A stretch of DNA of 64,000 nucleotides from Patescibacteria group bacterium (GTDB lineage Bacteria > Patescibacteriota > Microgenomatia > UBA1400 > PJMF01): NCBI GenBank assembly GCA_016861085.1, contig BOKR01000001.1, forward strand, positions 991,298 through 1,055,297. The letters run 5' to 3'. Position 1 is the stretch's first letter. Every line of letters starts with the position of its first letter. Made by a program: the position numbers and the translations under genes. Below are positions 22,221 to 48,661 of the stretch, piece after piece. The notes below the pieces were generated by a model. That model had not been told where the DNA came from, made no database searches, and was given only the letters and a program-made list of their open reading frames with translations.

Positions 22221-22830
22221 TATAACAATACACAGATATTACCATTCAAGAAGTAAACGAATACTGGACTTTTTTCTTGCTCTTAGCTTACTTACACTAC
22301 TCTCACCACTCATTGTCTGCCTTTGTTGTAGTACAGGAATAGTTGGTGGAAAGCCAGTTGTCTACAAACAAATGAGACTTGGTAAAAACAAAAAGCCATT
22401 TATTTTATATAAAATTAGAACTATGAAAAAAGGAGCATCAGTATTGCAACAAAAACTCAAAGACCTAAATGAGGCTCCCTATCCTATGTTCAAAATAGCA
22501 AATGATCCTAGATTTACGAGAATAGGTAAGTACCTTTCTCGCTTGGGCTTAGATGAAATACCTCAAATAATCAATATCATTAAAGGAGAAATGAGTTTTA
22601 TTGGACCTCGTCCTCTTCCTATTTACGAAGCTAGTCAGCTTGATGATACCTGGGACTTTAGGTACAAAGTAAAACCAGGAATCCTTTCAACATGGGCACT
22701 TTCTCCTAAAAGGCATGATTCACTTGCTGAGTGGAAAAAACTTGAGATAAGTGGACTGCAATGTGCATCGATTGCAAATGACATACGACTGATCATTAGA
22801 TCAGTTAAAACAGTAATCTTTAGACATTAA
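22213..22830 (+). CDS. Polyprenyl-phosphate sugar phosphotransferase (bacterial sugar transferase, WbaP/CpsE/PglC-like initiating enzyme)
   Basis: 205 aa. One N-terminal TM helix plus the conserved KxRTM…PRxTxxGxxLRxxxLDELPQ…GxMSxIGPRP signature. Confidence 0.85.
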   Translation: MTDITIHRYYHSRSKRILDFFLALSLLTLLSPLIVCLCCSTGIVGGKPVVYKQMRLGKNKKPFILYKIRTMKKGASVLQQKLKDLNEAPYPMFKIANDPRFTRIGKYLSRLGLDEIPQIINIIKGEMSFIGPRPLPIYEASQLDDTWDFRYKVKPGILSTWALSPKRHDSLAEWKKLEISGLQCASIANDIRLIIRSVKTVIFRH

Positions 22831-27488: not shown

Positions 27489-27498
27489 TTTGTACAGT

Positions 27499-28971: not shown

Positions 28972-28996
28972 AAACATATAATTAACTGAAGTACAT

Positions 28997-30475
28997 ATGC
29001 AAACCAAAGTAGCTGTTTTAGTTTTGTTGTTTGTTGTTTCTATTAGCCTTTTTTTTAGAACCTACAATGTTGAGAATACTACGAGAGTATTCAGCGATTC
29101 TGGCAGGGATTTTCTTGTTGCTAAAAAAATAGCCGAAGGATCTGCCCCATATAATCCATATTTAGCTTCATCATCTGGTTTTGAAAGCACTCCTATCTAT
29201 TATTGGGTTATTGCTTTTTTTTGGTCGATTGGAAGATCAATCGAAAACACTATAACTATTTATTCCGTGACTTTAGCTATAGCTACACCACTTATATTTT
29301 ATTTAATTGGAAAGGAAATTCATTCAAAAGAGCTCGGATTGTTCCTTGCTTTTTATTCCTCAATTCAACCATATTTTGTTGGTTTATCTAGGTGGATCTG
29401 GCAACCAAATGTGTTGATATTACTAATTCCAACGTTGTATTTATTTTTTTTATACAACAAAAAAGTTTTACTAAGAAAGAACCAACACAAGGAAAAATTT
29501 ATTCATATTTTTTTACTATTTCTCATACTAAATTTGAATATTCATATTCACTTCTCTTCGATAGTCTGCGTTTCTTTTCTGATCTCAATATTGATATATG
29601 AATTGCTAAAAAATAAGAAAATACTACTCGCTATCTCAGTAGGTTTAGGTTTTATTTCTTCGGTGTTAATTAGAGCGATAGTTGTCAATATTGCAACCCC
29701 AACAATCTTTGGTGTTGGCCTAAGTTTAAATCAAATGCTCATAAACTATAAACAAATTATTGGATCTTATGACAAAACTATTTTCTTAAATGAATGGTCA
29801 GAAAAACCTTCATTTTTCCCAAACATGATTCTTTTATTAGTTTTTCTTTCTATTTATTCATTTAAGAAACATAAAAAGTTGCCAAACCAGCTTATTACCT
29901 TACTAATAGGGTCACTACTCTCATTCATAACAGTAGTTTACCCAAAAACCGTGTATACCTACTTCTACATACCCCAGCTAGTACTTTTTCATATTCTTTT
30001 TGGAAGCATTCTGTACTTTTTTATGAAAATTAAGATTCAAATTTGTAGCAAGTTTTGTTTTGCACTAATCACAATAATTATATGTGGTTACTATATTGCT
30101 CACACCTATCAAATAATACACACAACCAACGAAATCAAAATCTCACAAATACTTTCGTTGGAGATTTACAAAGATTATAATACCAACCATCTCAGTATAT
30201 TTAGCATTGATTTTGTACCAAACAATTATGGACAAACAGACCATCAAAGTACATTTGACGCTATTTTGTGGCTACAAATGGAGTCCTTAATGAAAACTCA
30301 ACTCGTAAAAATTGGCACAACGTCACCTACAATAATCGAACCAAACAACCCCAAAATCACGTATTATGTTTTAGGCAACTCAGACCTAGTAGTACCACAA
30401 AAAAATACTGTGAAGATATTCGAACGAAAAATAGAGGGCGATACTTACTCAATTTATAAAGAATTAGCACTGTAA
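28997..30475 (+). CDS. GT-C-like polytopic membrane protein, third tandem paralog (divergent)
   Basis: 492 aa with multiple TM helices. N-terminal loop FSDSGRDFLVA…, in the same position as the DE/HPPL loop of the two upstream paralogs. Confidence 0.45.
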   Translation: MQTKVAVLVLLFVVSISLFFRTYNVENTTRVFSDSGRDFLVAKKIAEGSAPYNPYLASSSGFESTPIYYWVIAFFWSIGRSIENTITIYSVTLAIATPLIFYLIGKEIHSKELGLFLAFYSSIQPYFVGLSRWIWQPNVLILLIPTLYLFFLYNKKVLLRKNQHKEKFIHIFLLFLILNLNIHIHFSSIVCVSFLISILIYELLKNKKILLAISVGLGFISSVLIRAIVVNIATPTIFGVGLSLNQMLINYKQIIGSYDKTIFLNEWSEKPSFFPNMILLLVFLSIYSFKKHKKLPNQLITLLIGSLLSFITVVYPKTVYTYFYIPQLVLFHILFGSILYFFMKIKIQICSKFCFALITIIICGYYIAHTYQIIHTTNEIKISQILSLEIYKDYNTNHLSIFSIDFVPNNYGQTDHQSTFDAILWLQMESLMKTQLVKIGTTSPTIIEPNNPKITYYVLGNSDLVVPQKNTVKIFERKIEGDTYSIYKELAL

Positions 30476-30509
30476 TAAAATTAGAAAACGGGTAGAATTC
30501 TGATGTACT

Positions 30510-31529
30510 ATGAACTTGTTAATCACTGGCTCACTTGGTCTAGTCGGTTCGACTGCAACCGAATATTTCCTAAATAAAAATCATTCTATAACTGGTATTG
30601 ATAATGACATGAGGGCAGTCTTTTTCGGAAACGATGGTAGCACAACAACGCAGTTGAAACGATTCCTAAAAAATAGTAACTATACGCATACAGATCTAGA
30701 CATTCGCGATTATAAAAACCTAGAGAATATTTTCAAAGGCAACTCATTTGATGCCATTATTCACACGGCTGCACAGCCAAGCCATGACAAAGCCAGGGAA
30801 ATTCCACTCTTAGACTTCGAAGTTAATGCGTTAGGCACCCTCAACCTTTTGGAACTGACAAAACAATACGCTCAAAAAGCTGTCTTCATTTTCACAAGTA
30901 CTAATAAAGTTTACGGAGACAACCCCAACAAAATTGGCTTAAGAGAAAATAAAAAAAGATATGTATTTAAAGATAAATTGTTTGTTGGATTCAATGAATT
31001 GACCCCAGTCGATCACACTACACATTCACTGTTTGGAGCGAGTAAACTTAGTGCAGATATATGCGTCCAAGAATATGGCAAATACTTTGGACTCAAAACA
31101 ACTTGCTTACGGCTCGGTTGTATTACAGGGCAAGCACACTCTGGAGTAAAACTGCATGGGTTTCTCTCCTATTTAATTAAGTCCTTAAAAGAAAAAAAAT
31201 CATACGAAATTATTGGCTATAATGGTAAGCAAGTTCGCGACCAGATCCATGCATATGATCTCGCTGCCGCGTTTGAACAAATAATAAAAAAACCTGGTGT
31301 AGGGGAAGTCTTTAATCTTGGAGGTGGGTCTCAAAATACGATTTCCGTGTTAGAAGCTATTGAATTAGTCTCAAAAAAAATTAATATCGAGCCAAAACTC
31401 AAGTATACAAAAGCAAATCGAATTGGTGATCATATCTGTTACATTTCAGATATTAGAAAATTTCAAAAAAGATATCCCAAATGGAAACTAACGCAGAGCA
31501 TTGAGGATATTGTAAACGAACAACTATGA
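30510..31529 (+). CDS. NAD-dependent epimerase/dehydratase (CDP-paratose-2-epimerase-like SDR)
   Basis: MNLLITGSLGLVGS…GIDNDMR…, then a YxxxK catalytic pair. Confidence 0.75.
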   Translation: MNLLITGSLGLVGSTATEYFLNKNHSITGIDNDMRAVFFGNDGSTTTQLKRFLKNSNYTHTDLDIRDYKNLENIFKGNSFDAIIHTAAQPSHDKAREIPLLDFEVNALGTLNLLELTKQYAQKAVFIFTSTNKVYGDNPNKIGLRENKKRYVFKDKLFVGFNELTPVDHTTHSLFGASKLSADICVQEYGKYFGLKTTCLRLGCITGQAHSGVKLHGFLSYLIKSLKEKKSYEIIGYNGKQVRDQIHAYDLAAAFEQIIKKPGVGEVFNLGGGSQNTISVLEAIELVSKKINIEPKLKYTKANRIGDHICYISDIRKFQKRYPKWKLTQSIEDIVNEQL

Positions 31530-32284
31530 AACAAGTATCTATTCTCTCTGTTCCTGTGACAGTGACAAATTATCTTGAAACTATTACTTTTGTTAAGCGA
31601 ACTATTTCTCAAAGAAAAAAAATATATATTTATGTAGCCGCAGTTCATTTAATAATGGAATGTCAAAAAAACCCAAAGTTGCTGAAAAGTTTAAAAGGAG
31701 CAGCTATTGTTACTCCTGACGGAATGCCACTTGTATGGATTTCAAAACTATTGGGAAATAAACTTGCGGGTCGAGTATACGGACCAAATTTGACCATAAT
31801 GCTCTGTAGATTGGCTGAACTGTCTGGTTTTACAATTTTTTTGTTAGGAGGCTCTACTGGACAGTCTAAGAATTTAGTGAGTACCTTGCAATCAAAATTT
31901 AAAAAAATAAATATCGTTGGGAATATTGATACACCAATCAGGCCTATCCCAAAAAAAGAGAATCAAATAATAGTTGATGCTATAAATAAAAGTAAGCCAG
32001 ACATTGTTTTCGTTGGACTTGGCTGCCCTAACCAGGAATTGTGGATCATGGAGAATAGAAGTAAAGTCTCAGCACCCGTTTTAATCGGAGTTGGGGCGGC
32101 ATTTGACTTTATTTCTGGGAAAGTTCAACAAGCCCCAGTGTGGATGCAAAATAGTGGTCTTGAATGGCTGTATCGTTTGATTCAAGAACCAAAGCGTTTG
32201 TGGAAACGCTACTTAATACTTAACACGTTATTTATATTTAAAATTATTAAACAAATACTTAAATCTTTTTTTGTAGGACAGTAA
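31526..32284 (+). CDS. GT26 glycosyltransferase (WecB/TagA/CpsF family)
   Basis: …TPDGMPLVW…GRVYGPNL…FLLGG…VGLGCPNQELW… family signature. Confidence 0.8.
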   Translation: MKQVSILSVPVTVTNYLETITFVKRTISQRKKIYIYVAAVHLIMECQKNPKLLKSLKGAAIVTPDGMPLVWISKLLGNKLAGRVYGPNLTIMLCRLAELSGFTIFLLGGSTGQSKNLVSTLQSKFKKINIVGNIDTPIRPIPKKENQIIVDAINKSKPDIVFVGLGCPNQELWIMENRSKVSAPVLIGVGAAFDFISGKVQQAPVWMQNSGLEWLYRLIQEPKRLWKRYLILNTLFIFKIIKQILKSFFVGQ

Positions 32285-32332
32285 CTCACTTAGAACTCGG
32301 GTCTCACCAAAAAAGATAGTATACTACATCGC

Positions 32333-33556
32333 ATGCGAAAAAAAATTCTCTTTCTAAGTCAAGTATATCCATATCCAGCGGATGGTGGCGGTAAAATTAA
32401 AACATTAAACTCACTAAAAACACTTGCTAAAGATTTTGACGTCTATGCAATCTTTATTTCAGAAAAAAAACCGCTCAAAAAAGATATCGAATATCTTAAA
32501 AAAATTGGAGTAAAAAAAATCAAAGTATTTTACAATCTAAAAATTTTAGCATCTGTTAAAGATGATTATCCTCATCTAATTATGAATTTCCTGAAACTGA
32601 GGCCACACTATGTATTTCAGTATACTTTTGCACCGGCATTTTCATATATAAAAAATGCTGTCAGTAGCTACAAACCAGACATCATACACATCGACCATAT
32701 TAATATTGCTCAATATTTGCCAAAAGAAAAGAATGAAGTCTGGATTCTTGAGCACCACAATCTTGAATTTTATCTTCTATGGACAAGATTTTTATACTCC
32801 TCCAAATGGTCAAGAAAACTGTATCTGCTCATCGAGTCAGTACTAACATATTTATTTGAATCAAAAAAAATAAAACAATTTGATTTTGTTTTTACTATTT
32901 CTCAAGAAGAAGCTGAAAGATCAAAAAGATTTTTTGGGATAAGAAACGTTTCAGCTCAACCTCTTGTGTACCCCACCATTACTATTAAGAAGAAATTGTC
33001 ACTCAATCCTCACCTCCTTTTCATAGGTGGTCTAGGTTGGCCACCTAACGAAGATGCCATAGAGTGGTTTATCAATCAAATGTTTCCAATAATTCTAGAA
33101 AAAATTCCAAACGTTGAGCTTCATGTAGTTGGTAAAGATAACCCCATTCTTACTCATAGGTTACCAAAACACACTAATATCTTTTTACATGGGTATCAAA
33201 AAGATATCACACCTTTTTTGCAAAAAGCAGATATTTTTATCTTGCCCTTCCGCATGGGTGGCGGGGTTAGAATTAAGAGCCTGACTGCTCTTTCTGCGGG
33301 AGTACCAATCGTGTCTACAAAGTTGGGTGTAGAGGGACTAAAAGTCAAAAATAATACACACTATCTAGAAGCAAACACTGAAATAGATTTTGCCAACAGC
33401 GTTATCACACTGCTTAAGTCAAAAAAAATGCAAGATAAAATGTCAAAGAATCAAACCGAATATTTGACTGAAAACCACTCAAAAAAATTGAATAGAAAAT
33501 GGCTGGATGAATATCACTTTTGGTCTACATATCCCCATAAAAAAAACCGTTCATAA
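32333..33556 (+). CDS. GT4 family glycosyltransferase
   Basis: GT-B fold with a C-terminal …FILPFRMGGGVRIKSLTALSAGVPIVST…G.EG motif. Confidence 0.75.
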   Translation: MRKKILFLSQVYPYPADGGGKIKTLNSLKTLAKDFDVYAIFISEKKPLKKDIEYLKKIGVKKIKVFYNLKILASVKDDYPHLIMNFLKLRPHYVFQYTFAPAFSYIKNAVSSYKPDIIHIDHINIAQYLPKEKNEVWILEHHNLEFYLLWTRFLYSSKWSRKLYLLIESVLTYLFESKKIKQFDFVFTISQEEAERSKRFFGIRNVSAQPLVYPTITIKKKLSLNPHLLFIGGLGWPPNEDAIEWFINQMFPIILEKIPNVELHVVGKDNPILTHRLPKHTNIFLHGYQKDITPFLQKADIFILPFRMGGGVRIKSLTALSAGVPIVSTKLGVEGLKVKNNTHYLEANTEIDFANSVITLLKSKKMQDKMSKNQTEYLTENHSKKLNRKWLDEYHFWSTYPHKKNRS

Positions 33557-34419
33557 ATCTTCAAAAAGATAAAAGATAAAATGCTTCTTCTTTTACCAAA
33601 GGAGAAATATTGTCTATATTCCTGCGGCCATCCCTTGAGAGATTTGAAATATGTTTTCCAATTCACATAGGGCAAATATACAAACTCATTAGAAATTTCC
33701 CATTTTTCAGCTAGTAATCTTGCTAATCTACCACGGTAATACCCTTTTTTCAGGAAATAAGTCATACTTGTTGTTTCCTCGTGCCAAATTTGCAACTGCT
33801 TTATAAACAATCCTTTTAAACCCTTAGACTGCATTGCAAATCCCATATCTGTATCTGCGCTATCAAACCAATCAATATGAATTTTTGTATCAAAACTCAA
33901 TCTATTTCTTTTTAGATCTGAAACTTTGAATATAATATTTTTCGTATCTACATTAAAAGGAGTTGTTAATACTCCACCTTGAAGCTTTTGCATAAACCAG
34001 TACTTTTGGTGGACGTATTGAGCTGTGGCAGTTGCACTATAAGAGTTCAGTACTTTTGAATCTCCAATAAAGTACGAATTATTGGGAAAAATCTTTACAA
34101 TCCTTTCTGCAACAGTAATCCAACTCTTATGAAGTACGCAATCATCGTCAACAAAAGCCAAGTATTTTGTTTTTACATTTCTTAGAGCCACATTCCTAGC
34201 AAAAGGGACACCTTGTTTTTTTTCTGATATGTATCGAATCTGTAAAATATTTGAAAAAGAACAAGCAACGCTTTTTGCACTTAAGGCAATATCATTATCA
34301 ACAATTAATATCTCTAAAGGATATGTAGTCTGATCTACTAAAGAACAAAGTAAGCGGTGTAGTTGTTCCGGCCTTTTTTTTGTAACGATTGCTAAAGTAA
34401 CTTGCCTTTTTTCATGCAT
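33514..34419 (-). CDS. GT2 family glycosyltransferase
   Basis: N-terminal …AIVTKKRPEQL…ILIVDND… GT-A signature. Confidence 0.7.
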   Translation of the reverse strand: MHEKRQVTLAIVTKKRPEQLHRLLCSLVDQTTYPLEILIVDNDIALSAKSVACSFSNILQIRYISEKKQGVPFARNVALRNVKTKYLAFVDDDCVLHKSWITVAERIVKIFPNNSYFIGDSKVLNSYSATATAQYVHQKYWFMQKLQGGVLTTPFNVDTKNIIFKVSDLKRNRLSFDTKIHIDWFDSADTDMGFAMQSKGLKGLFIKQLQIWHEETTSMTYFLKKGYYRGRLARLLAEKWEISNEFVYLPYVNWKTYFKSLKGWPQEYRQYFSFGKRRSILSFIFLKIYERFFLWGYVDQK

Positions 34420-35876
34420 AGCAGCGTAAGTACCCCTAAATATAAAAATAATAAATCAAAACTTGGATCTTGATTAAATAGTGTGTGAACTTGCGAATTT
34501 AGGATAAACCCTACAACCCCCAACCATATACCAAAAAACACGTTTTTTTTAACATACTTAAAACTCAATTGTAATATACCAAGTAAAAACAAAATAAAAA
34601 ATACAGTACTAGGAATTCCTAGCTCTGAGAAAAAAAGAAAGAAAGTGTTATGCACGGGAAACATAAAACCTCTTAATTCAGGGGGCAATAAACTTTGTTC
34701 GTTCATCATTCTAGTACTTAAATTCAGTCCAACCCCAAATAAGGGAAATTCCTTTATCATAATTAGTGCCTGTTCAATGAGAGCTATTCTGACAACTCCA
34801 CTTCCATCTGATAAAAATTCCGTAGTGCTTACTATTCTGAGCCAAAATCGTTTACCAAATAGAACTAAAAAACTGCTTATTCCGGCGATAAAAAATAGTA
34901 GATATTTACTGATAAATTCTTTTAAAAAAATTCTTTCATTAAAATACAAGTTGAGGAAAAAAACTATGAAAAAAAGTAAGCTTGAAAACCATCCGCTCCT
35001 AACAAAACTCCCATACAACGCTAGCAGTCCTAGAAGTACACAGATAGATGAAACCACAGTTGTACCTCTCTGTTTTTCTTGCAATGAGAAAATTGAAAAA
35101 ACAATGGCAAATGGTAACAACATGCTAACAAAACTAGCAAAAAAAGTTGGGTGTCCAATTAAGCCAGAAGCTCTGTATAAACTTTCCGAACCGTCTGAAG
35201 TAAGGTATCCCTGTTGTTCATAACCAGCTCCGTCCTCGAGGTACCAACCTATTGGCCCACCATTTTGATGTTGTAAAAAACCAACGTACCCATTTAAAAA
35301 TAGGACCAAAATTATCGATAGGAAAAAATATTTTACAAATGTTCTGTTTTGTAAAATGATAATCGTTATAAAAAATAAAAACACCGCTTGTAAGATTCTT
35401 AAAAATCCAAAAAAGCTTAAAAAGTAGTCACTGGAAAACACTGTGCTTACAAAAGCTAGTACAATAAAGCCTAGTAATGCAAAAAGTACTAGCATAATAT
35501 TCTGATTAAATGATTTTCTAAAGTAGAAAAATAATTCTGGAGATGAAATTAAAAAAAGTAGCAAAATTATAATTGATCTCAGACTTACACCGTAATACAA
35601 GCTAAAACCGTGCATCCAAAATTCCCTTCCCTGAGCCACAGCAACCAAATCCCATCCACGAATGCCTTTGTCAAATGAAAAAACAAATAGCAACGCAACA
35701 AATAAGACTTCCTTTATTGAAAAATCAAAAAGTAGAAAATTAAATGTTACAAATGAAGACACGATAAAAAGCAAGGTCTTTATATCGTGAACAAATTGAA
35801 GAGCAACAATATGTACTAAAAAAACAAAAATAAAAAATAGTGAATTACCTAGTAACTGTTTCAACTTCAGCAACAT
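34392..35876 (-). CDS. Polytopic membrane protein, O-antigen ligase/polymerase-like
   Basis: 494 aa with ~12 TM helices and a large extracytoplasmic loop (…LEDGAGYEQQGYLTSDGSESLYRASGLIGHPTFFASF…), typical of the Wzy_C/O-antigen-ligase family. Confidence 0.5.
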   Translation of the reverse strand: MLLKLKQLLGNSLFFIFVFLVHIVALQFVHDIKTLLFIVSSFVTFNFLLFDFSIKEVLFVALLFVFSFDKGIRGWDLVAVAQGREFWMHGFSLYYGVSLRSIIILLLFLISSPELFFYFRKSFNQNIMLVLFALLGFIVLAFVSTVFSSDYFLSFFGFLRILQAVFLFFITIIILQNRTFVKYFFLSIILVLFLNGYVGFLQHQNGGPIGWYLEDGAGYEQQGYLTSDGSESLYRASGLIGHPTFFASFVSMLLPFAIVFSIFSLQEKQRGTTVVSSICVLLGLLALYGSFVRSGWFSSLLFFIVFFLNLYFNERIFLKEFISKYLLFFIAGISSFLVLFGKRFWLRIVSTTEFLSDGSGVVRIALIEQALIMIKEFPLFGVGLNLSTRMMNEQSLLPPELRGFMFPVHNTFFLFFSELGIPSTVFFILFLLGILQLSFKYVKKNVFFGIWLGVVGFILNSQVHTLFNQDPSFDLLFLYLGVLTLLCMKKGKLL

Positions 35877-36711
35877 CTGTTATTTCTAAAATAATACTAA
35901 CTTCTGGAAAAAAAAGTGAAAGATGTTCACCCAACCTTACTACTTGGTGACCAGAAAAATAATAATTTTCAAAAAGTTTTTCAACTTGCATTCTTAAAAC
36001 CATGTCAACATCTTTAACTGTATAATCAGTTCTCAGGTTTATATTTGATGTATATTCGTTTTTGTAGAGGGTCGAGACAAAACTCTGATGTGTTTCTGAT
36101 TTTTCAACTACAGCGTAAACTTTTCCTGTGTATGGGTTTTTTATATCCATTCCCTTATAAATTGCTTGCGCAACCGGATTAGGAACTGCTTTCGCTACTC
36201 CTGATACCAACACTTCTTCAGTTTGGTTCTTATAATTTGTATCAAAAATATCTACAACTTGCCCAACTATAAATACGCTGTCGAAATGAAAATCAATTTT
36301 TTGACCTACTTCAATATTCTTGCCTTTGTACACTGTCCTGCCAGTACTAAAATTTTCAACTGTTTCTATTTGAACATACAAAAATACTTGGGCGTTACCC
36401 CCATTTCTTTCAAAGAAATCAATATCAACAATTTCCGCAACCACCCTTCCATCAGGACTCACCTCATAAGCACCAATTTGTAAGTCTTTAACGAGCCATA
36501 GCGGTGGTCTATAACCCTCAAACTGAGAATAGTTATTTGTCCAATCTTGTCCAGTAACCTCAACTTTAATGAGCTGCTGATGAAGCTGTACTTTTTGATG
36601 TTTAACTAATGAAACAACAAAAAATGAAACTACTAAAAGAACTACCAAAGTATAAGGATTCAGAAAGCGTAGCTTATTTTTTATATACTCTGATACAGTT
36701 TTTTTCTTCAT
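35845..36711 (-). CDS. Hypothetical membrane-anchored protein
   Basis: 288 aa, one N-terminal TM helix, no motif recognised. Co-directional with and overlapping the ligase-like gene. Confidence 0.4.
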   Translation of the reverse strand: MKKKTVSEYIKNKLRFLNPYTLVVLLVVSFFVVSLVKHQKVQLHQQLIKVEVTGQDWTNNYSQFEGYRPPLWLVKDLQIGAYEVSPDGRVVAEIVDIDFFERNGGNAQVFLYVQIETVENFSTGRTVYKGKNIEVGQKIDFHFDSVFIVGQVVDIFDTNYKNQTEEVLVSGVAKAVPNPVAQAIYKGMDIKNPYTGKVYAVVEKSETHQSFVSTLYKNEYTSNINLRTDYTVKDVDMVLRMQVEKLFENYYFSGHQVVRLGEHLSLFFPEVSIILEITDVAEVETVTR

Positions 36712-36804: not shown

Positions 36805-37605
36805 ATGAAAAATAGCCACTATGATTGGAAAAACTTACTTATCGAGCTAACAAAGAAAGAGATATCTGTTAGATACAAAAAAACATTCTTTGGTTTTTTA
36901 TGGATGTTCTTAAACCCACTTTCTCAAATGCTAATTTTAGGGATTGTTTTTCAAAATTTTGCGAATCTCTCAATAAAAACTGAGAATTACTTTTTGTTTT
37001 TATTTATTGGACTTATCATTTGGAATTTTTTTTCAAATACTTTATATACTACAATTCCCATTTATGTTAATGAACGGGCTCTACTACAAAAAAGCAAATT
37101 TCCGAGAGAAATCATCCTTATTTCAGTACTATTTTCCAATCTATTTCATTACTTAGTTTCCCTTCTTGTTCTTCTTTGTTTTATTAGTATCTACTTCCTC
37201 TTCAGCAATGGTATGGGCGTTGTATTGAATTTGATTATTAGAACACCACTCATTCTCCTGACTACAATCTGGCTTGGACTACTTACAACCGGTATTGGTT
37301 TATTTCTCTCGTCACTGAATGTTAAATATAGAGATATTAATTTTTTTACTAGCGCAGCACTGCCACTCCTGTTTTATGCCTCCCCAATCATCTGGGAACT
37401 CCATTTTGTTCCGAAAGCTATTTTACCGATTCTGTACCTAAATCCACTCGCCTCTATCATTGAAATAAACAGGTATGTTTTTCTAAATGAAGGATTAGCT
37501 TTTTCAAAAGGAATTCTTTTAGGATTAATTGTTACCATCATTGTACTAGCGCTCGGAATTTATATTTTCGAAAAAGAAAGTCCTTACTTTGACGATTGGC
37601 TATAG
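36805..37605 (+). CDS. ABC-2 type polysaccharide/teichoic-acid export permease (Wzm/TagG-like)
   Basis: 266 aa, 6 TM helices, N-terminal …ISVRYKKTFFGFLWMFLNPL… ABC-2 signature. Confidence 0.75.
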   Translation: MKNSHYDWKNLLIELTKKEISVRYKKTFFGFLWMFLNPLSQMLILGIVFQNFANLSIKTENYFLFLFIGLIIWNFFSNTLYTTIPIYVNERALLQKSKFPREIILISVLFSNLFHYLVSLLVLLCFISIYFLFSNGMGVVLNLIIRTPLILLTTIWLGLLTTGIGLFLSSLNVKYRDINFFTSAALPLLFYASPIIWELHFVPKAILPILYLNPLASIIEINRYVFLNEGLAFSKGILLGLIVTIIVLALGIYIFEKESPYFDDWL

Positions 37606-38359
37606 AATGAAACCGAAACAAAAAAAACTACAAGAAATAGCGGTCAAACTAACGAAAGTGAGTAAAGTTTATACTGTAAAAACAGAAAAACCAACACTTG
37701 TTGAAACAGTACTAAACAAAAAGGGTATCACAAAATATACTGCTCTTAATTCTTTTGATTTAACTGTTCTTAAAGGTGAAAAACTTGGAATCATTGGTTC
37801 AAATGGTGCAGGAAAAACGACACTATTAAAAATTATTGTCGGAATTACACAGCCTCAAAGCGGAACTGTCACCGTAAATGGTAAAATTGTCTCATTGATT
37901 AATCTAATGGCAGGTTTTCACCCAGAGATGTCTGGTTTTGACAACATCAAGCTTAACGGACTGCTCATTGGTATGAGTGGAGCAGAAATCGAGGAAAAGA
38001 AAAATAAAATAGTAAAATTTGCAGATATTGGTGAGTTTATCTATGCGCCATTACATACCTACTCAACTGGAATGAAGTTGCGTCTTGGATTTTCTATAGC
38101 GGTTCACTCGGACCCAGATATTCTTATTCTCGATGAAGGGGTAAGTGCCGGTGATGAAAAATTCAGAGCGAAAGCGAACAATAAAATTCAAAAATTATTC
38201 AAACAAAATAAAACCATTATTGTCGTTTCACACTGGCTCAATTTTCTTAAAGAAAATTGTAATAGAATAATTTGGATGGAAAAAGGCAAAATAAAAAAAG
38301 ACGGCTCAACTAAGCTACTAGATGAATATCTGGCCTTTTATGCAGGAAAGAAAAAGTAA
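37589..38359 (+). CDS. ABC transporter ATP-binding protein (Wzt/TagH-like)
   Basis: Walker A GSNGAGKTTLLK, ABC signature YSTGMKLRL, Walker B ILILDEG. Start overlaps the permease stop. Confidence 0.8.
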   Translation: MTIGYRMKPKQKKLQEIAVKLTKVSKVYTVKTEKPTLVETVLNKKGITKYTALNSFDLTVLKGEKLGIIGSNGAGKTTLLKIIVGITQPQSGTVTVNGKIVSLINLMAGFHPEMSGFDNIKLNGLLIGMSGAEIEEKKNKIVKFADIGEFIYAPLHTYSTGMKLRLGFSIAVHSDPDILILDEGVSAGDEKFRAKANNKIQKLFKQNKTIIVVSHWLNFLKENCNRIIWMEKGKIKKDGSTKLLDEYLAFYAGKKK

Positions 38360-39844
38360 CACAACCCTTGGTTTGAAAATCATTCTGTGAAATGGAAGCT
38401 TCAAAGCTAATCGCATAACATGCAGTTCCACCAGAAATTTCCGAGCAAAGTAGCTGTTCTCGTCCCACCAATTCCCTTCACCTTGATAAGTTGCTATCCT
38501 ATTTAAGTCAAAATGCTTCGATAATAATTTGACTCTTCTGTTCACACCGAATGAAGAAAGATATTTCTCATTAAGTTGTAAATTAAAAATCCTGTTCCCA
38601 ACGTACATCAGTAGTTGAACTTCATCCCAAAACCCATACTGACTAGAAATCCTCTGTAACTTCTGCCAATTAATTTTGGTGTCTTCCGAAAGAATTTTCG
38701 ACAGTTCAAATATTTTTCGCAATCCATGAAAAAAGTCGTTTGCCCATAATCTTACAACTGAACTTAAAATGTAATATTCGATCTCTATTATCCCATCTTT
38801 TGAGTGAGATAAAATGTCTTTTGTTAGTCTCATTGTTTCTTTTCGTGTGAAAATCAAGTTTCTTGGAATTGAAGAATAGTAATGCAAATCTATGACAAGA
38901 TTGTGTTTATCATGAATCAACTGCACTTCCTGAGGAGGACAATCTTTCGTTCTGTATCCCAGAATATATAATGCAATCAAATATCTTTTTAAGTATCTTT
39001 TGCCGACAAGAATATCAATGTCATATGTTGTATTTTGTTTTAGTTTTATGTCACCTTGATATTTTTTCAATAAAACAAATCTAACTCCCAACTTTTTTGC
39101 TATTAAATGCAAATCATTTTTCAGCTTGTCCTTTTGCCAGTCAAGAAAAATATTCTTTTTAAAAAGATTTTCAATTCGTAACAAAAATTGATCTGAAAAG
39201 TAACTTCTACAATTTATACAATTTAAAATATGATTAAAATAAGTAATTGATTTGTTATTTTCAGCTATTTTAAATAACCGGTCTTCAAGTACAACATTCT
39301 GTTGAAAATCCCACTTACATTTCTTCCCCTTTTCCTTAGATATACTAAGTAAAAAATCGTATGATAAATCAATTCCTTTTCTATTTCTTTTTTGTGCAAG
39401 AATTTTTAAAATAACAACTTCGTAAAAAAAATAGTTGTGTACCAATTTGAAAATATATTTTCTTGGAATAGTTAGACTCATTAAAAATGAATATATTTGA
39501 AAAAAAGGTATGATCAGTTTTGAAATGAAAACTTCAAGATCTAAAACATATGCTCCATTCTTGATAACAGTAACAATTCCAATATAACTGCTGCCATTCA
39601 CAAGATCTCCGTCTTCTGTTAGATTAAAATCTCCTTTTACCTTCAGTAATCTGCCACTATCACCGTTAACTACTTTAGTAACCCTGTGTGATAAAAGGTT
39701 GCCTGTATAGTTTCTATATAAAACTATATCTCCAGATTGTACTTGAGAAAAAGGATAATCCAATTGAACTGTTAACCTATCCCCTGAAGAAATAAGGGGA
39801 AACATACTTTTTCCTGAAGACGTAATCTGTATATATTGTTTCAT
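38318..39844 (-). CDS. Fusion: S24/S26 (signal-peptidase-I-like) peptidase domain + PF14907-type 'uncharacterised nucleotidyltransferase' domain
   Basis: N-terminus GKSMFPLISSGDRLTV…SGDIVLY…TKVV… has the S26 Ser/Lys signature. C-terminus has …GVRFVLLKKYQG…YDIDILVGKRYL… (R-x-DIDLLV-like nucleotidyltransferase motif). The internal ATG (MKQYIQITSSGKSMFP) is preferred because the track start at 39919 would overlap the divergent GT2 gene start. Confidence 0.5.
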   Translation of the reverse strand: MKQYIQITSSGKSMFPLISSGDRLTVQLDYPFSQVQSGDIVLYRNYTGNLLSHRVTKVVNGDSGRLLKVKGDFNLTEDGDLVNGSSYIGIVTVIKNGAYVLDLEVFISKLIIPFFQIYSFLMSLTIPRKYIFKLVHNYFFYEVVILKILAQKRNRKGIDLSYDFLLSISKEKGKKCKWDFQQNVVLEDRLFKIAENNKSITYFNHILNCINCRSYFSDQFLLRIENLFKKNIFLDWQKDKLKNDLHLIAKKLGVRFVLLKKYQGDIKLKQNTTYDIDILVGKRYLKRYLIALYILGYRTKDCPPQEVQLIHDKHNLVIDLHYYSSIPRNLIFTRKETMRLTKDILSHSKDGIIEIEYYILSSVVRLWANDFFHGLRKIFELSKILSEDTKINWQKLQRISSQYGFWDEVQLLMYVGNRIFNLQLNEKYLSSFGVNRRVKLLSKHFDLNRIATYQGEGNWWDENSYFARKFLVELHVMRLALKLPFHRMIFKPRVVLLFLSCIKGQIFI

Positions 39845-39924
39845 GTGACTAACTATATCAAACCTATTATAAGCAAATATTTTTAGTTCTGGAAATGCAA
39901 AACAAAATACTGTATACAAACCTT

Positions 39925-40929
39925 ATGAGTAAGGTGTCTGTAATCATACCAACAAAAAATAGACAAGAATATCTAAAAAAGAACTTGAATGCCCTCGTGA
40001 ACCAAACAGTTGCACCTGACGAAGTTATTGTAGCTGATAATGGTTCAACAGATAATACAAAAAAGATTATCAGTTCATTTAAAGATAAGCTTCCGATTAA
40101 GTACCTCTTGGTTAAAAAATCAGGGGTCACCCATGCTCGAAATAACGCTGTTAAAAAAGCAACACATGAGATCGTTGCTTTTCTTGATGATGACTGCGAA
40201 GCAAAAAATAACTGGATTGAAAAAATCAAGAAAAACCAACACTATCTTGATACCCATGTTGTCCAGGGAAAATCGATTAACCCTAATAAAAAAAATATAA
40301 TCGCCGAAGTTATGTACTTCTGCTCTGAAACAGGTGTTAGAGTTTGCATTAGTGAATCAAAAATTATTAATAATCAAATAGATAATAAACCAATTTTTTT
40401 CGATTTTCTTGACACAAAGAACTTGGTGATAGGCAAAAAAATCATTAAAAAAGTTGGTACTCTATTTGACAATAACCTTGAAAGTTACAATTATGGTGAA
40501 GATACAGAACTTGGAATAAGACTACATTCTATGGGTATTTCTTCAATATATTGTGAGGACATCAAAGTCGATCATCATTACATTGATAATCTTATGCCAT
40601 TTATCAAAAAAAGCTTCCTAGCGGGTAAAACACAAGTGGCTGTAACAAAGATAATTAAAATGAAGCACAAGGAGAGGTATGAAAATGAAAAAAAATATGC
40701 TGAGATTTTTGGCAATAAGGCAATGAAAAATATTGTTGGGAAGAGACTAAAAAATGTGAGAATAATTTCAAATGAGTATTTTAGAATATTATCAAAAAAA
40801 TATTCACCTTTGCGTATAATCACATTCAAATCATTATTTTATGGGCATATTCTTTTCAAAAATCTGGGAATTTACTACCAGAAGTTACTTTACTTATTTA
40901 TAAAACTACCCTATACTCACTCTCGTTAA
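39925..40929 (+). CDS. GT2 family glycosyltransferase with C-terminal extension (paralog A)
   Basis: MSKVSVIIPTKNRQEYL…VIVADNGSTDNT…AFLDDDC… GT-A core plus a ~100 aa helical tail. Paralogous to the 41291-42205 gene. Confidence 0.65.
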   Translation: MSKVSVIIPTKNRQEYLKKNLNALVNQTVAPDEVIVADNGSTDNTKKIISSFKDKLPIKYLLVKKSGVTHARNNAVKKATHEIVAFLDDDCEAKNNWIEKIKKNQHYLDTHVVQGKSINPNKKNIIAEVMYFCSETGVRVCISESKIINNQIDNKPIFFDFLDTKNLVIGKKIIKKVGTLFDNNLESYNYGEDTELGIRLHSMGISSIYCEDIKVDHHYIDNLMPFIKKSFLAGKTQVAVTKIIKMKHKERYENEKKYAEIFGNKAMKNIVGKRLKNVRIISNEYFRILSKKYSPLRIITFKSLFYGHILFKNLGIYYQKLLYLFIKLPYTHSR

Positions 40930-41209: not shown

Positions 41210-41284
41210 ATGAAAAAAACATACAAAAAACCAGCAGAAAAAGTTGAAAAACTATTGGTCTACACTGGTAATCAAACCCTCTAG
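41210..41284 (+). CDS. Small ORF (24 aa, MKKTYKKPAEKVEKLLVYTGNQTL), candidate modified-peptide precursor
   Basis: Fills the 94-nt gap between the PqqD and GT2 genes. GAAAGG Shine-Dalgarno sits 3 nt before the ATG. Contains a YxxP leader-like motif; below the ORF-track length cut-off. Confidence 0.3.
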   Translation: MKKTYKKPAEKVEKLLVYTGNQTL

Positions 41285-41290
41285 TTAGAG

Positions 41291-42205
41291 ATGATTTCTG
41301 TTATAGTTGTGACGAGGAATAGGCAATCTCATTTGTTTGGTTGTCTAGTTTCCCTTTCAAAACAGACTAGACAGCCAAAGGAAATTCTAGTTATCGACAA
41401 TGCTTCGACTGATAACACTAGGGTAGTTGTTGAAGAATTTTCAAGGAAGTACCCTCACATTAAATACATTTATTGTTCAAAACTTGGAATTCCCTACTCT
41501 AGGAATATGTCTGTTGAAAAGGCTAAATATGACATACTTGCTTGTTTAGATGACGATTGCAACCCTGATTTGGATTGGTATGAGAATATTGAAAAACAGG
41601 CTGAATTAGCGAATAATTATGTACTTCAAGGAGGAGCTAAAAATCCCAATCCTACTAATGTACTTTCAACCACTCTTTTTTATCTAAATCAGAGATTTCT
41701 CAACCTAGAATTACTAATTAGCAATAATACTTATCGAAAGTATAAAGTTATTCATTTTTTTGATACAAAAAATTTCGTAATACACAAAAAACACATCAAA
41801 AAGGTTGGTCATTTTTTAAATGAAAAACACATTCTCGCTGCAGACTTATTCTTCCAAAAGGATCTCGAAAATAACAACATTAAAATTCTCTACTTGCCTG
41901 GCATAGATGTATACCACAGTTACATGACAAATTTATTTGGATATTTGAACAAAATCATTTGGGCAAAAAAATGCAAGCAAATTTTTGGTTCTGTTCAACT
42001 CATACATACAAAAAAATTAGAATCAACCAAAAACTTGTTTGGTATGGATAGGGTTGCTAAAGTTCAAACAACATTTTACAAGAAACTTAAAAAAATAAAC
42101 CAAGATTTTTTTGATACTTGTGCAGCAAAAATGAATTTTCCCAAAAAGATTATGCTTAAAACAACAGTTTTTTTGACGCAGTTGTATCTTGGTGACACTA
42201 TCTAA
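41291..42205 (+). CDS. GT2 family glycosyltransferase with C-terminal extension (paralog B)
   Basis: MISVIVVTRNRQSHL…LVIDNASTDNT…ACLDDDC…, same layout as paralog A. Confidence 0.65.
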   Translation: MISVIVVTRNRQSHLFGCLVSLSKQTRQPKEILVIDNASTDNTRVVVEEFSRKYPHIKYIYCSKLGIPYSRNMSVEKAKYDILACLDDDCNPDLDWYENIEKQAELANNYVLQGGAKNPNPTNVLSTTLFYLNQRFLNLELLISNNTYRKYKVIHFFDTKNFVIHKKHIKKVGHFLNEKHILAADLFFQKDLENNNIKILYLPGIDVYHSYMTNLFGYLNKIIWAKKCKQIFGSVQLIHTKKLESTKNLFGMDRVAKVQTTFYKKLKKINQDFFDTCAAKMNFPKKIMLKTTVFLTQLYLGDTI

Positions 42206-42222
42206 AGTATAATACAACTCCA

Positions 42223-42972
42223 ATGCATAAAAGTTTTTGTATCGATTTAGCATCAAAAAAGGTAGAGATTTCTGCAAATACAGATAATGTTTTCGAACAC
42301 TTAATGCAAAGTTATAGTAACTTTATCGTTAGAGATAGCAGAAAAACAAACATTAATTTACAGATCAAAGGCATTAAAACAAGAAAAAATTATAAACCGA
42401 TTAGTGATATTTCATCCAGAAGTGGAAAAATTATTATTCCCAACAACGCCAATCTAAGTTTTTCTGAAATACACTTTAATATCAAAATTGTTCTAACTCA
42501 ACTTCTAATTCAAGATGATTTTATGCTTCTGCACGCTTCGGCATTCATAAAGAATAATAATATGTATATTATGAGTGCTCCGTCTGGAACTGGCAAATCA
42601 ACAACTTGTAGATTTGCAAAAGAAAAAGGATTAAATGTTGTTTGCGATGACTCTGTTTTGCTAAGGGTCGAAAACAGAAAACTAATCGGGTATACAACTC
42701 CTTATATCGAAACTCATAAAAAGGTTTCTTCTCCACAATCATATCAGGTTGCTGGGATATACTTTTTGCATCAATCTAAAACAGACAAACTACAAAAACA
42801 AAACACCGTTGAATCAGTACGAAGCATTTTGTTTAATAGTTATATTTTTCAAAATGACTACAAAGAAAAGTATATAAGCAAGTATTTTTCTTTAGCCCAT
42901 GTGATAGCTAGTAGAACGAAAACGTACGATCTGTTTTTTACCAAATCTTCAAAATTTTTGGGAATAATTTAG
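42223..42972 (+). CDS. HPr-kinase/phosphorylase C-terminal-domain-like P-loop kinase (RiPP-associated Ser/Thr kinase type)
   Basis: …LLHASAFIKNNNMYIMSAPSGTGKSTTC…VVCDDSVLL… matches the HprK-like/lasso-peptide-kinase P-loop pattern LHAS.V…GxSGxGKST…DD. Confidence 0.6.
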   Translation: MHKSFCIDLASKKVEISANTDNVFEHLMQSYSNFIVRDSRKTNINLQIKGIKTRKNYKPISDISSRSGKIIIPNNANLSFSEIHFNIKIVLTQLLIQDDFMLLHASAFIKNNNMYIMSAPSGTGKSTTCRFAKEKGLNVVCDDSVLLRVENRKLIGYTTPYIETHKKVSSPQSYQVAGIYFLHQSKTDKLQKQNTVESVRSILFNSYIFQNDYKEKYISKYFSLAHVIASRTKTYDLFFTKSSKFLGII

Positions 42973-43904
42973 ATTACTTTGTTATAATCTTGAAATTTAT
43001 TGTCCATGTTGATACCGATATAATATACGAGGTAGTGTTTATTATGTTTATAGAGACAAAAATTCGGAAATGAACTATAAAGCTTTTGCATATTTTTTCT
43101 AACATTGTCAATTTCAGCAGCGAAGTTAAAAAAGATGATTCCATCTTTTTTAAGTATTCTATGAAGCCCATTTAAAAATGCTTTTGAAAATAATTGTTTA
43201 GGAAGTCGCCCATCAATAAATAGATCAATAAATATGAAATCGTATTTACTTTTCGATTCTTTTACAAAGTCAAATGCATCACTATTAATTTGGAAAATTT
43301 TTGCTGAATCTGTATTTTTAATTAATGGTAAAAAATAATTGGCTCCAATTTCACTAATTTTTGTATTGATCTCCACAGAGTCAACTTTCCTCACATTTCT
43401 CAAAATCGCTGTTACACAAGGAACAGATTCTGCACCACCACCTAGTACTAGAACATCATTATTTTTTGTGTTTTTTGACTGTAAGATGTCTCTAACAACC
43501 TTAAAATGAACGCATCTATCGTAAGGAAAAAGTGAAACTTTTGAGTGTGTCCAGTATACTCCAGGTGTTTTTTCATAAAAAGCTATTCTGGCTGATTCTT
43601 GAACCAAATCAAATCTTAGATGATCAACGACTGAGTGTTTCTTTTCGTCTATGTAAAAATCAGTAATGTGTATAAACAACCCCTGCTTTTTAAGCAAAAA
43701 GTAAAAGTAAATCAAGCTCAACAATAATACAACTACAACTACGCATGAAATAAGGAAATCTACCTTTAGCGAAATAAGTAGCAATACAAATAGCAGTACA
43801 AAATATGCTATTAATTTTTTGCTACCGTAAGGAGTTCCCTTGATGTACATGTTCCTATCATAATTTCTTATAACTTTTCTAAATAAAAAAATAAGTGTTG
43901 ACAT
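42969..43904 (-). CDS. Membrane-anchored class I SAM-dependent methyltransferase / spermidine-synthase-like protein
   Basis: N-terminal TM helices, then VLVLGGGAESVPCVTAIL…VDSVEIN…IFIDLF (Rossmann, spermine/spermidine-synthase-like). Confidence 0.5.
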   Translation of the reverse strand: MSTLIFLFRKVIRNYDRNMYIKGTPYGSKKLIAYFVLLFVLLLISLKVDFLISCVVVVVLLLSLIYFYFLLKKQGLFIHITDFYIDEKKHSVVDHLRFDLVQESARIAFYEKTPGVYWTHSKVSLFPYDRCVHFKVVRDILQSKNTKNNDVLVLGGGAESVPCVTAILRNVRKVDSVEINTKISEIGANYFLPLIKNTDSAKIFQINSDAFDFVKESKSKYDFIFIDLFIDGRLPKQLFSKAFLNGLHRILKKDGIIFFNFAAEIDNVRKNMQKLYSSFPNFCLYKHNKHYLVYYIGINMDNKFQDYNKVI

Positions 43905-44863: not shown

Positions 44864-44884
44864 CCACAAAAAAAGCGCTTAATT

Positions 44885-45009
44885 CTGGCCTCGACCTATC
44901 TTCTCACTAGGGTTGCCCCTGCAATATTGTCAGCGCTGAGGCGTTTCAAGACTCTGTTCGGGAAGGGAAGAGTTGGGTCCACCTCGCTCCAGAGACCAGA
45001 ATTAAACGC
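44885..45009 (-). rRNA. rrf: 5S ribosomal RNA
   Basis: Minus-strand transcript GCGUUUAAUUCUGG…CCCGAACAGAGUCUUGAAACGCCUCAGCGCUGACAAUAUUGCAGGGGCAACC…CCAGAAUUAAGCGC. Helix I terminal pairing and loop-C/helix-IV consensus are present. Ends are approximate. Confidence 0.75.
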
Positions 45010-45189
45010 TTTAATCTGTATTATACTTCTCTCTTAACTTGTTAATGGGTGCAAAATCGTGTTTTCACGAGGTTTGCACACTGTTGTTGTTGCAAGCAGC
45101 CAAACGGTTTGCACAACAACGTAATTTGAACTCTAACAAGTGAAGAAAATCTGCCATGGGTCAAAAAGTCATTTGGTCGATTGGCCATA

Positions 45190-48115
<2,926 letters not shown>

Positions 48116-48587
48116 TAAATTTTAATTTAAAATTTTGCATGTTTGTATAATATTTTTCAATATGATACGGTTTGTAGCTTACTTATTATGTGCTTGAATT
48201 TGCATTCAAGCTCAAGTAATTATTTAATTCTTTAGTTAATCTCAAAATTGAAATTATAAAGATGTACGGCCAACTTAAATGATCAAATCATCTATTTGAC
48301 CTATACATGACAGTTTTCTTCACTTGTTAAAGTTCATCTTATAATTTTAAGTCTCAAAGCTTTCGGATTTATGCGTATAGAGCTTTTAAAAAACGTAGAG
48401 TTCAATATAATCTATACACCACCACTTATTTGACTTTAGCTTAGTTGCTAATTGTTAGTTCCTAGTTAATCCCGGGTGAGAGAAACCAAAGAACTAATAA
48501 CTAACAACCAATGTTATTTTAGTTTTCGCGCCAAAAAAAAAGAGTGATCAAATTATGAAAAGTAGTCTTATCCAGAGAAAAACTCTG

Positions 48588-48661
48588 TGGACCCTAAGGG
48601 GATCGAACCCTTCACCTCCTCATTGCAAATGAGGCGCTCTAGCCAGATGAGCTAAGGGCCC
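48588..48661 (-). tRNA. tRNA-Ala (anticodon UGC), CCA not encoded
   Basis: Cloverleaf read by hand: acceptor GGGCCCU/AGGGUCC with the G3:U70 alanine identity pair, D-arm AGCUCAUCUGGCUAGAGC, anticodon loop UUUGCAA, T-arm GGUUCGAUCCC. Confidence 0.85.

Follow-up and report, generated by a model that had tools for sequence, protein, structure and literature searches.

A fused S26B-type peptidase and nucleotidyltransferase in a patescibacterial locus resembling linear polyphosphorylated peptide clusters

The stretch analysed here, 64,000 nucleotides from a Patescibacteria group bacterium (GenBank assembly GCA_016861085.1, contig BOKR01000001.1, positions 991,298 to 1,055,297 of the forward strand), is called the window below, and coordinates refer to it unless another locus is named. 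On its reverse strand lies a gene for a single polypeptide in which an N-terminal peptidase-like domain is joined through a linker to a nucleotidyltransferase domain. Divergent from this fusion gene runs a tightly packed operon encoding two family 2 glycosyltransferases (GT2), a recognition element (RRE) of the PqqD family for peptides made on ribosomes and modified after translation (RiPPs), a candidate precursor peptide and an HprK-like kinase, and convergent with it lie the genes of an ATP-binding cassette (ABC) exporter. These parts recall the gene clusters of linear polyphosphorylated peptides (LPPs), and the relation of the fusion gene to that pathway is the subject of this report.

The fusion gene and its two domains

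The gene and its parts are located as follows.

38318..39844, minus strand: fusion gene for an S26B-type peptidase (predicted leader peptidase) and an NTP_transf_5 domain, 508 amino acids plus stop; frame open back to a TTG at 39919
39545..39844, minus strand: peptidase domain, residues 1-100, with SGKSMFP (Ser13), SHRV (His53), KGD (Asp72) and TEDGD (Asp78)
39365..39544, minus strand: linker, residues 101-160, with two predicted amphipathic helices, 106-122 and 128-155 (AlphaFold2 secondary structure)
38321..39364, minus strand: NTP_transf_5 (Pol-beta-like) domain, residues 161-508, with D275-x-D277, D319, H321 and a C176/H205/C209/C212 cluster

The frame 38318..39919 on the minus strand is one uninterrupted open reading frame (ORF) of 533 codons counted from a TTG. 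The ATG at 39844 is the likely start of the gene, giving 508 amino acids, judging from the corresponding Met from which both close homologues (P0001 at 97% identity and P0002 at 50%) are called. Fusion gene and divergent GT2 gene lie no more than 8 bp apart in L001, a syntenic locus. A weak -10-like TATAAT is found just 5′ of 39844, the number of promoter-like sites being not above chance, and scans for promoters and terminators gave results at chance level. The deposited record, GIK84399.1 (‘hypothetical protein’, 495 amino acids), begins at Met14 and cuts off the predicted catalytic Ser13 (window 39806-39844), so that the start given here corrects a record in which this serine is deleted. 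The GC content of the region, 0.29-0.34, is in line with that of its surroundings.

The initial annotation recognised a peptidase of the S24/S26 type and a nucleotidyltransferase in this frame, and proposed a Ser/Lys dyad for the former. Both domain assignments hold, and the dyad gives way to Ser, His and Asp, with His53 as the base. The N-terminal domain matches NCBIfam TIGR02228 (sigpep_I_arch) with E 2.9e-12 and 46.7 bits against a curated cut-off of 51.85, and SipW and Pfam Peptidase_S24 with E 3e-8 and 2e-3, respectively, both under their curated cut-offs; its stand-alone relatives in two other loci (L003 and L006) exceed the TIGR02228 cut-off. S13, M14, P16, H53, R54 and D72 are invariant in an alignment of 18 such domains, one of them from a stand-alone relative and the others from fusion proteins. 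The Ser, the His and D72 of KGD are likewise invariant among 15 fusions, most of which also retain D78, a residue invariant in the three closest. A search of the PDB with the single sequence gave no meaningful match and profiles were required. The solved structures best matched by the profile of the 18 domains are those of human SEC11A and SEC11C (E about 4e-12), and the alignment with SEC11A spans SGSMEP, HRV and KGDNNxxDD and places S13, H53 and D78 on S56, H96 and D122.

An AlphaFold2 model of residues 1-160, made from 70 sequences, has a predicted local distance difference test score (pLDDT) of 84.2 and a predicted template modelling score of 0.80, with pLDDT above 90 over residues 1-100. 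Foldseek matches this model in the PDB to the type I signal peptidases SpsB and SEC11A/SEC11C, to SipA and to the S24 domain of lambda repressor, all with probability 1.00; for SEC11A and SEC11C the root-mean-square deviation is 3.2-3.7 Å over about 105 columns. The N-terminal region is thus modelled with an S24/S26 fold, on which the initial annotation had staked its assignment. Catalysis is predicted to rely on a Ser13-His53-Asp78 triad of the ER/archaeal Sec11/SipW type, in which His53 of SHRV, not a Lys, would be the general base.

The closest functional counterpart of this domain comes from LPPs, which were described by Popov et al. (Nat Commun 2026; PMC13381572). LPP clusters sit in capsule loci, have been called restricted to Bacillota, and encode the precursor LppA, the RRE LppB, the HprK-like kinase LppK, the SipW-like peptidase LppS, the uncharacterised NTP transferase LppN and the MsbA-like exporter LppD (PMC13381572). 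LppK polyphosphorylates Ser3 of the core. LppS cuts the leader after T-1, solely in the presence of LppB, and its S29A, H68A and D93A mutants are dead (PMC13381572). The reference proteins used here are those of Paenibacillus alginolyticus, from the supplement of the same paper. In BLASTP, the window domain matches LppS with E 1e-14 in an alignment that extends to residue 129 and places S13, H53 and D78 on S29, H68 and D93, and the profile of the domain family matches it at 99.4% in hhalign. Since LppS has been shown experimentally to be an RRE-dependent leader peptidase, this homology supports a leader-removing role for the window domain, and the proposal of the initial annotation that it serves as the leader-removing protease of an RRE module gains from it, as from the LPP-like RRE, kinase and precursor described below.

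By name, the best family matches are signal peptidase I and SipW, and a gene close by (35845-36711) encodes a 288-amino-acid signal-anchored protein with an N-terminal hydrophobic segment. The domain might on these grounds be read as a dedicated SipW-like secretory signal peptidase for neighbouring Sec proteins such as this one, with the nucleotidyltransferase as an unrelated passenger, a reading that we consider very improbable. A signal anchor is absent from the window protein, because only 12 residues precede Ser13, and a Kyte-Doolittle scan, which is a plain hydropathy test and not a dedicated membrane predictor, found no 19-residue stretch of at least 1.6 in it. The same scan gives almost no membrane-grade segments in the other fusions and the nearest stand-alone relatives, whereas the N-terminal helices of genuine signal peptidases lower in the same match list score 2.6-3.3. 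The 288-amino-acid neighbour bears no similarity to what L001 encodes at the corresponding position, the closest relatives of the domain adjoin PqqD and HprK-like genes, and the same domain is found fused to cytoplasmic partners in both orders. Membrane anchoring by the linker helices finds no support in their hydropathy, which is below the membrane-helix threshold; they correspond to the hydrophobic C-terminal tail of stand-alone LppS.

The C-terminal domain was called an orphan nucleotidyltransferase in the initial annotation, a label that no longer fits. It is of the LppN/PsmN type (NTP_transf_5), a regular companion of HprK-like kinases in phosphorylated lasso peptide and LPP clusters. Pfam PF14907 (NTP_transf_5) matches residues 299-445 of the 533-residue frame with E 1.7e-6 and 28.3 bits, under its threshold of 31.2; 14 of the 15 fusion homologues match it, the best with E 5e-50, and a precomputed match exists for P0002. 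All 35 relatives compared have D275 and D277 of the DIDILV motif (residues 275-280) and either D or E at residue 319, and 34 have H321. The family profile of the domain matches LppN in hhalign (97.4%, E 1.6e-11) with the DxD and (E/D)LH motifs aligned. A weak profile match to the lincosamide nucleotidyltransferase LnuA (4fo1) at the DxD motif, E 0.009, fits a Pol-beta-type fold as far as sequence can tell. The fold of this domain rests on such profiles, the modelling being confined to residues 1-160; a full-length AlphaFold2 model made from three sequences had a pLDDT of 38 and was unusable. Of the 35 closest NTP_transf_5 relatives, 27 share the complete pattern C-x28-H-x3-C-x2-C (C176, H205, C209, C212; window 39209-39319, minus strand), which LppN lacks and which may be a zinc site specific to the subfamily.

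The divergent operon and its surroundings

The operon opposite the fusion gene has the following members.

39895..40929, plus strand: GT2 glycosyltransferase, first gene of the operon and divergent from the fusion gene; Pfam Glycos_transf_2 E 5.8e-29; syntenic in L001
40933..41196, plus strand: discrete RRE of the PqqD family, LppB- and lasso B1-like; Pfam PqqD E 4.8e-11, above cut-off
41210..41284, plus strand: unannotated 24-amino-acid candidate precursor MKKTYKKPAEKVEKLLVYTGNQTL, with a YxxP leader motif, a short variable core and a conserved Thr23-Leu24
41291..42205, plus strand: second GT2, between precursor and kinase, 6 bp past the precursor stop; Pfam Glycos_transf_2 E 5.4e-25; syntenic in L001
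42223..42972, plus strand: HprK-like P-loop kinase (LppK/ScmC-like), Walker A SGTGKST

The gaps between these genes are 3-17 bp, the stop of the first GT2 lying 3 bp before the PqqD start, and the whole arrangement, 24-codon ORF included, is conserved in L001. In NCBIfam the kinase matches HprK_rel_A with E 9.7e-11 and ScmC with E 5e-9, neither match reaching its cut-off, and in BLASTP it matches LppK across the P-loop region with E 9e-11; its orthologue in L001 has Pfam ScmC. The second-best NCBIfam match of the first GT2 is the mycofactocin glycosyltransferase MftF, with E 2.9e-24, far under the cut-off.

The candidate precursor was found by listing ORFs of at least 20 amino acids in the gap between PqqD and the second GT2, which it fills. 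GAAAGG stands 5 nt upstream of it, and a purine-rich sequence like a ribosome-binding site precedes the copies in both the window and L001. It is without annotation in the deposited genome, where accessions run consecutively from PqqD (GIK84401) to the GT2. A regular expression for lasso-type leaders, Y..P.[LIVM], did not pick it up because its position +5 is Glu. The syntenic counterpart in L001, MKKVYKKPAEKIEKLLVYTVEITL, also has 24 amino acids and is identical at 19 of them, flanking proteins being 37-78% identical. Between the two copies there are nine synonymous and five non-synonymous codon differences. Codons 1-19 differ by seven synonymous and two conservative changes, residues 20-22 are all changed, and Thr23-Leu24 is retained through synonymous changes. 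A conserved leader followed by a variable core is, on this comparison, the pattern of a RiPP precursor. In an ungapped alignment with published LppA precursors, for example MKKVYEAPQVLAHQMIQFET|TAS..., Y5 and P8 have identical counterparts, Y18 is opposite F-3 and Thr23 opposite the phosphorylated Ser3. Against the LPP consensus YxxPxVLxHQxIxFETxxS, the window peptide matches the Y, the P, the hydrophobic residue at 12, the aromatic one at 14 and the hydroxyl one at 19; VL, HQ and ET are absent, and its 24 amino acids compare with 35-200.

The best PDB match of the window RRE is the lasso B1 protein TfuB1 (1.7e-4), before the LppB chain 9x8z (0.018) and TbiB1 (0.02). Lasso peptide clusters of the paeninodin/pseudomycoidin type in Firmicutes contain an HprK-like kinase and a nucleotidyltransferase as a pair (PsmK/PsmN); this nucleotidyltransferase presumably glycosylates the phosphate that the kinase puts on, PsmN adding a hexose to the phosphoserine of pseudomycoidin, and in some cases forms one protein with the B2 leader protease (PMC8498205). 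An HprK-like kinase, an NTP_transf_5 protein and a B1-type RRE, together with the YxxP in the leader, are what the tailoring part of such a lasso cluster would comprise, with cyclase and B2 encoded elsewhere in the genome. That the genes here tailor a phosphorylated lasso peptide is nonetheless hardly to be expected. The ORFs scanned, both in the window and in L001, include neither an asparagine-synthase-like lasso cyclase nor a transglutaminase-like B2, a core of 4-5 residues is unable to form a lasso, and an S26 peptidase stands in the place of B2, as in LPP clusters.

Further genes next to the fusion gene and the operon are the following.

36805..37605 and 37589..38359, plus strand: ABC-2 type exporter, consisting of a Wzm-like permease and a Wzt/TagH-like ATPase; Pfam ABC2_membrane and ABC_tran; convergent with the fusion gene
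42969..43904, minus strand: spermine-synthase-fold transferase with an N-terminal membrane segment; Pfam Spermine_synth E 1.4e-14; same place in L001, 37% identity

The exporter ATPase matches NCBIfam TagH and galactan Wzt with about 1e-55, and the exporter is syntenic in L001 at 75-78% identity. The ATPase gene on the plus strand and the fusion gene on the minus strand share 42 bp at their 3′ ends (38318-38359); the corresponding overlap in L001 is 33 bp (6068-6100 of that locus). No MsbA-like exporter (ABC_membrane) was found among the large window ORFs scanned, the Wzm/Wzt-like ABC-2 system being the sole adjacent transporter. Upstream of the module, a surface-glycan locus at 22827-36711 carries two Wzy_C (O-antigen-ligase-like), GT1/GT4, GT2, WecG/TagA, NAD-dependent epimerase/dehydratase-family and PMT_2-like genes, and this setting parallels the capsule loci reported to house LPP clusters.

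These surroundings suggest a further explanation, in which the module takes part in the synthesis of a cell-surface glycan (capsule, teichoic-like or O-antigen-like) and yields no free peptide product. The nucleotidyltransferase and GT2 enzymes would then have as their substrate a glycan that is linked to a lipid or polymer and leaves the cell through Wzm/Wzt, and the small peptide would be at most a primer or carrier. The genes do belong to a locus of some 25 kb in which GT1, GT2 and WecG/TagA genes, an epimerase, PMT_2 and two Wzy_C genes accompany a TagH/Wzt-like ABC exporter, those for RRE, precursor and kinase alternate with GT2 genes, and LPP clusters themselves have been reported inside capsule loci with a final product that is unknown (PMC13381572). 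However, the features typical of a pathway that modifies a peptide are present, namely a PqqD RRE, a kinase like LppK, a peptidase like LppS and a conserved peptide with YxxP, and the same cassette occurs without glycan genes in two other loci (L003 and L009). We regard glycan synthesis without a peptide product as improbable, and it overlaps with an LPP-type pathway rather than excluding it.

On the other side of the cluster lie a 5S rRNA gene (44883-45000), a 23S rRNA gene (45199-48120) and a tRNA gene (48588-48661), all in the minus-strand stretch 44883-48661. The rRNA genes appear to be unlinked, because no 16S rRNA gene is present in the whole window. ORFs of 684, 481, 522 and 939 amino acids at 4374-6428 (minus strand), 26043-28971 (plus) and 58494-61313 (plus) have no Pfam match at E of 1e-4 or better; two of them lie inside the glycan locus.

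Distribution of the fusion and of unfused cassettes

The fusion is real and recurrent, as judged from the sequences compared. It is colinear through the linker in P0002 (50% identity) and P0003 (30%), and both domains occur together in at least 15 distant protein clusters retrieved when 1.84 billion representatives were searched exhaustively with a profile; in two of these (P0016 and P0068) their order is the opposite. The fusion thus exists in other genomes, where the initial annotation had advised looking for it. A high-GC metagenomic locus (L009) has a PqqD gene, a small ORF, an HprK-like kinase and a 542-amino-acid fusion of S26 and NTP_transf_5 domains. Word-indexed protein searches with the full protein yielded few relatives, and scans of genomes and metagenomes with a three-sequence alignment one and two loci, a 15-sequence alignment being too divergent for scanning. 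One further apparent fusion (P0162) was seen only in a misaligned alignment and was rejected; this protein, which has an S26-like domain at its C-terminus and matches nothing in Pfam, is unrelated.

The same data bear on the idea that the fusion is an artefact of assembly or a frameshift between two genes, the latter a refutation foreseen in the initial annotation, or that the peptidase domain has decayed into an inactive remnant. The deposited start at Met14, which omits the catalytic Ser, and the profile scores below cut-off lend this idea some colour. The identical architecture nevertheless recurs in independent assemblies, at 97%, 50% and 30% identity and in distant lineages, and the putative catalytic residues are conserved as described above in both alignments, with D78 invariant in the three closest fusions. 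As far as these comparisons go, the idea is effectively refuted in each of its forms.

The closest stand-alone relatives of the peptidase domain occur in cassettes where the same parts are separate genes.

L006 (Thermodesulfobacteriota): 41-amino-acid ORF, PqqD, HprK-like, unknown gene, S26, NTP_transf_5
L003 (Methylococcales): 39-amino-acid ORF, PqqD, HprK-like, S26
L005 (2072-8628): rSAM-SPASM (rSAM, radical S-adenosylmethionine enzyme), HprK-like, C25 peptidase of 1024 amino acids, S26, PqqD
L002 (5848-11799): GT1, NTP_transf_5, rSAM, QueC-like fused to PqqD, S26, ScmC-like

The cassettes of L002 and L005 may stand for additional RiPP classes, as yet uncharacterised, in which an S26B enzyme serves as leader peptidase. 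Small ORFs adjoin PqqD in several related cassettes (L003 5723-5842, L006 203-328, L009 1719-1865 and L008 401-517). Three of the small cassette ORFs have (Y)xxPx(V/I)x(T/S)Y(T/D)xx(E/D)(I/L)(L/V)E, which is unlike the published LPP leader consensus, and that of L008, METYKKPSIKK..., is near the window leader. Anchor-less S26B domains have other partners as well: at L008 1551-2441 an AAA_18 P-loop domain, and in P0119 (728 amino acids) a complete ABC_membrane and ABC_tran exporter, which makes the latter protein a serine-peptidase analogue of the C39 peptidase-containing ABC transporters (PCATs).

The proposed pathway and its relation to known systems

Taken together, the fusion gene probably encodes a bifunctional maturation enzyme of an LPP-type RiPP pathway, whose product would be a linear phosphorylated and probably glycosylated peptide. 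In the predicted order of events, the 24-amino-acid precursor, with its leader MKKTYKKP... and YxxP motif, would be bound by the discrete PqqD-type RRE, and the HprK-like kinase would phosphorylate a hydroxyl residue of the short core, for which Thr23, aligned with the phospho-Ser3 of LppA, is the best candidate. The soluble Sec11/SipW-type domain would remove the leader from the RRE-presented peptide near VYT/G, that is, after Thr19 or Gly20. The NTP_transf_5 domain (D275xD277...D319/H321) would decorate the phosphate from a nucleotide-activated donor, as PsmN does for pseudomycoidin. The two GT2 enzymes of the operon would extend the glycan and the adjacent Wzm/Wzt-type ABC transporter would export the product, while the fusion of peptidase and transferase may couple leader removal to the transferase step.

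Several points weigh against this LPP-type pathway. On the side of the enzymes, the matches of the window protein to TIGR02228, Peptidase_S24 and PF14907 are all sub-threshold, and the pairwise BLASTP match of the C-terminal domain to LppN (E 0.62) is not significant. The reference sequences of LppK and LppN were themselves rebuilt from an alignment in a PDF and are a few residues short. Only 12 residues precede the putative catalytic Ser, so that the window protein lacks alpha1, the N-terminal helix by which LppS touches LppB. On the side of the substrate, the 24 amino acids of the precursor are below the published range of 35-200, its candidate acceptor is a Thr, whereas LppK rejected an S3T substrate (PMC13381572), and in the alignment Gly or Val takes the place of T-1, which is conserved in LPP leaders. 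The transporter is of the ABC-2, Wzm/Wzt type and not MsbA-like. Finally, no activity has so far been demonstrated for LppN, which was inactive in the heterologous host (PMC13381572).

A bolder version of the pathway assigns the ribosomal peptide the part of a primer for a phosphate-linked glycan, not that of an antibiotic-like end product. After phosphorylation of Thr23 by the kinase, the fused enzyme would, as a single complex, both cut away the leader and attach the initial sugar or sugar phosphate, leaving extension of the chain to the GT2 enzymes and its export to Wzm/Wzt. We think this version doubtful but worth stating, for, if true, it would amount to a ribosomally primed surface glycoconjugate and would reveal the role of LppN and the partner enzymes it requires, which were beyond the reach of the 2026 study.

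The wider interest of the locus lies in what it adds to a family that was defined in 2026, and in which the role of LppN and the biological function are still unknown (PMC13381572). The core LPP machinery appears to be present in Patescibacteria and, through the related loci, also in Methylococcales, Thermodesulfobacteriota and other uncultured lineages. The repeated fusion of peptidase and nucleotidyltransferase, in both orders, is Rosetta-stone evidence for joint action on the same substrate, and the GT2 genes packed among those for RRE, precursor and kinase point to the missing partners on which LppN has been proposed to depend. The cluster is, moreover, of unusual compactness and easily delimited, and reconstitution and mass spectrometry would find an uncomplicated substrate in a precursor of 24 amino acids with a core of 4-5 residues.

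Among known systems, the more distant parallels concern the logic of the pathway. PCATs, which export bacteriocins, likewise have a leader peptidase fused to another component of the pathway (compare P0119), but theirs is a C39 cysteine protease joined to a transporter, whereas that of the window is an S26B serine peptidase joined to a transferase. In the mycofactocin pathway (MftA/MftB/MftE/MftF), a short RRE-bound precursor also gives rise, through a few C-terminal residues, to a small product glycosylated by a GT2. The window module has no radical SAM enzyme and would use other chemistry, so that the likeness is one of analogy and not evidence of membership. The Sec11, SipW and archaeal type I signal peptidases (MEROPS S26B; TIGR02228) share the fold and the Ser-His-Asp residues (SGxSMxP, HRV, KGDNNxxD) with the window domain. 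Unlike them, the window protein lacks a signal-anchor helix and is fused to a cytoplasmic transferase, and its predicted substrate is a cytoplasmic leader presented by an RRE instead of a Sec signal peptide.

The B2::nucleotidyltransferase fusions of lasso clusters in Firmicutes come nearer. There too a leader peptidase is joined to the same kind of nucleotidyltransferase, in the company of an HprK-like kinase and a B1-type RRE, and these proteins are an independent precedent for fusing the two activities. They differ in that their protease is a cysteine protease of transglutaminase fold and their product a lasso made by a cyclase, whereas the window has an S26B serine peptidase, and no cyclase was found in the scans above. 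As far as the literature searched shows, the view of the initial annotation that no characterised protein has the fused architecture of the window still holds.

LPP clusters themselves offer the closest match. Like them, the locus combines a candidate precursor with YxxP, a discrete PqqD RRE, an HprK-like kinase, a SipW-like Ser/His/Asp peptidase, an NTP_transf_5-type transferase and an ABC exporter; it is likewise devoid of a lasso cyclase in the ORFs scanned and embedded in a polysaccharide locus. On present sequence evidence it is a fused, minimal, non-Bacillota version of the LPP pathway and not a new kind of system. It departs from the published clusters in a precursor of 24 amino acids with a Thr, not a Ser, as candidate acceptor and in a peptidase that dispenses with the alpha1 helix. 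What is new are the following points: the counterparts of LppS and LppN are fused into one polypeptide, a fusion of which PMC13381572 makes no mention; the host belongs to the Patescibacteria and not to the Bacillota; the core is reduced to 4-5 residues; the transporter is of the Wzm/Wzt type instead of MsbA-like; and two GT2 genes have their place inside the core operon.

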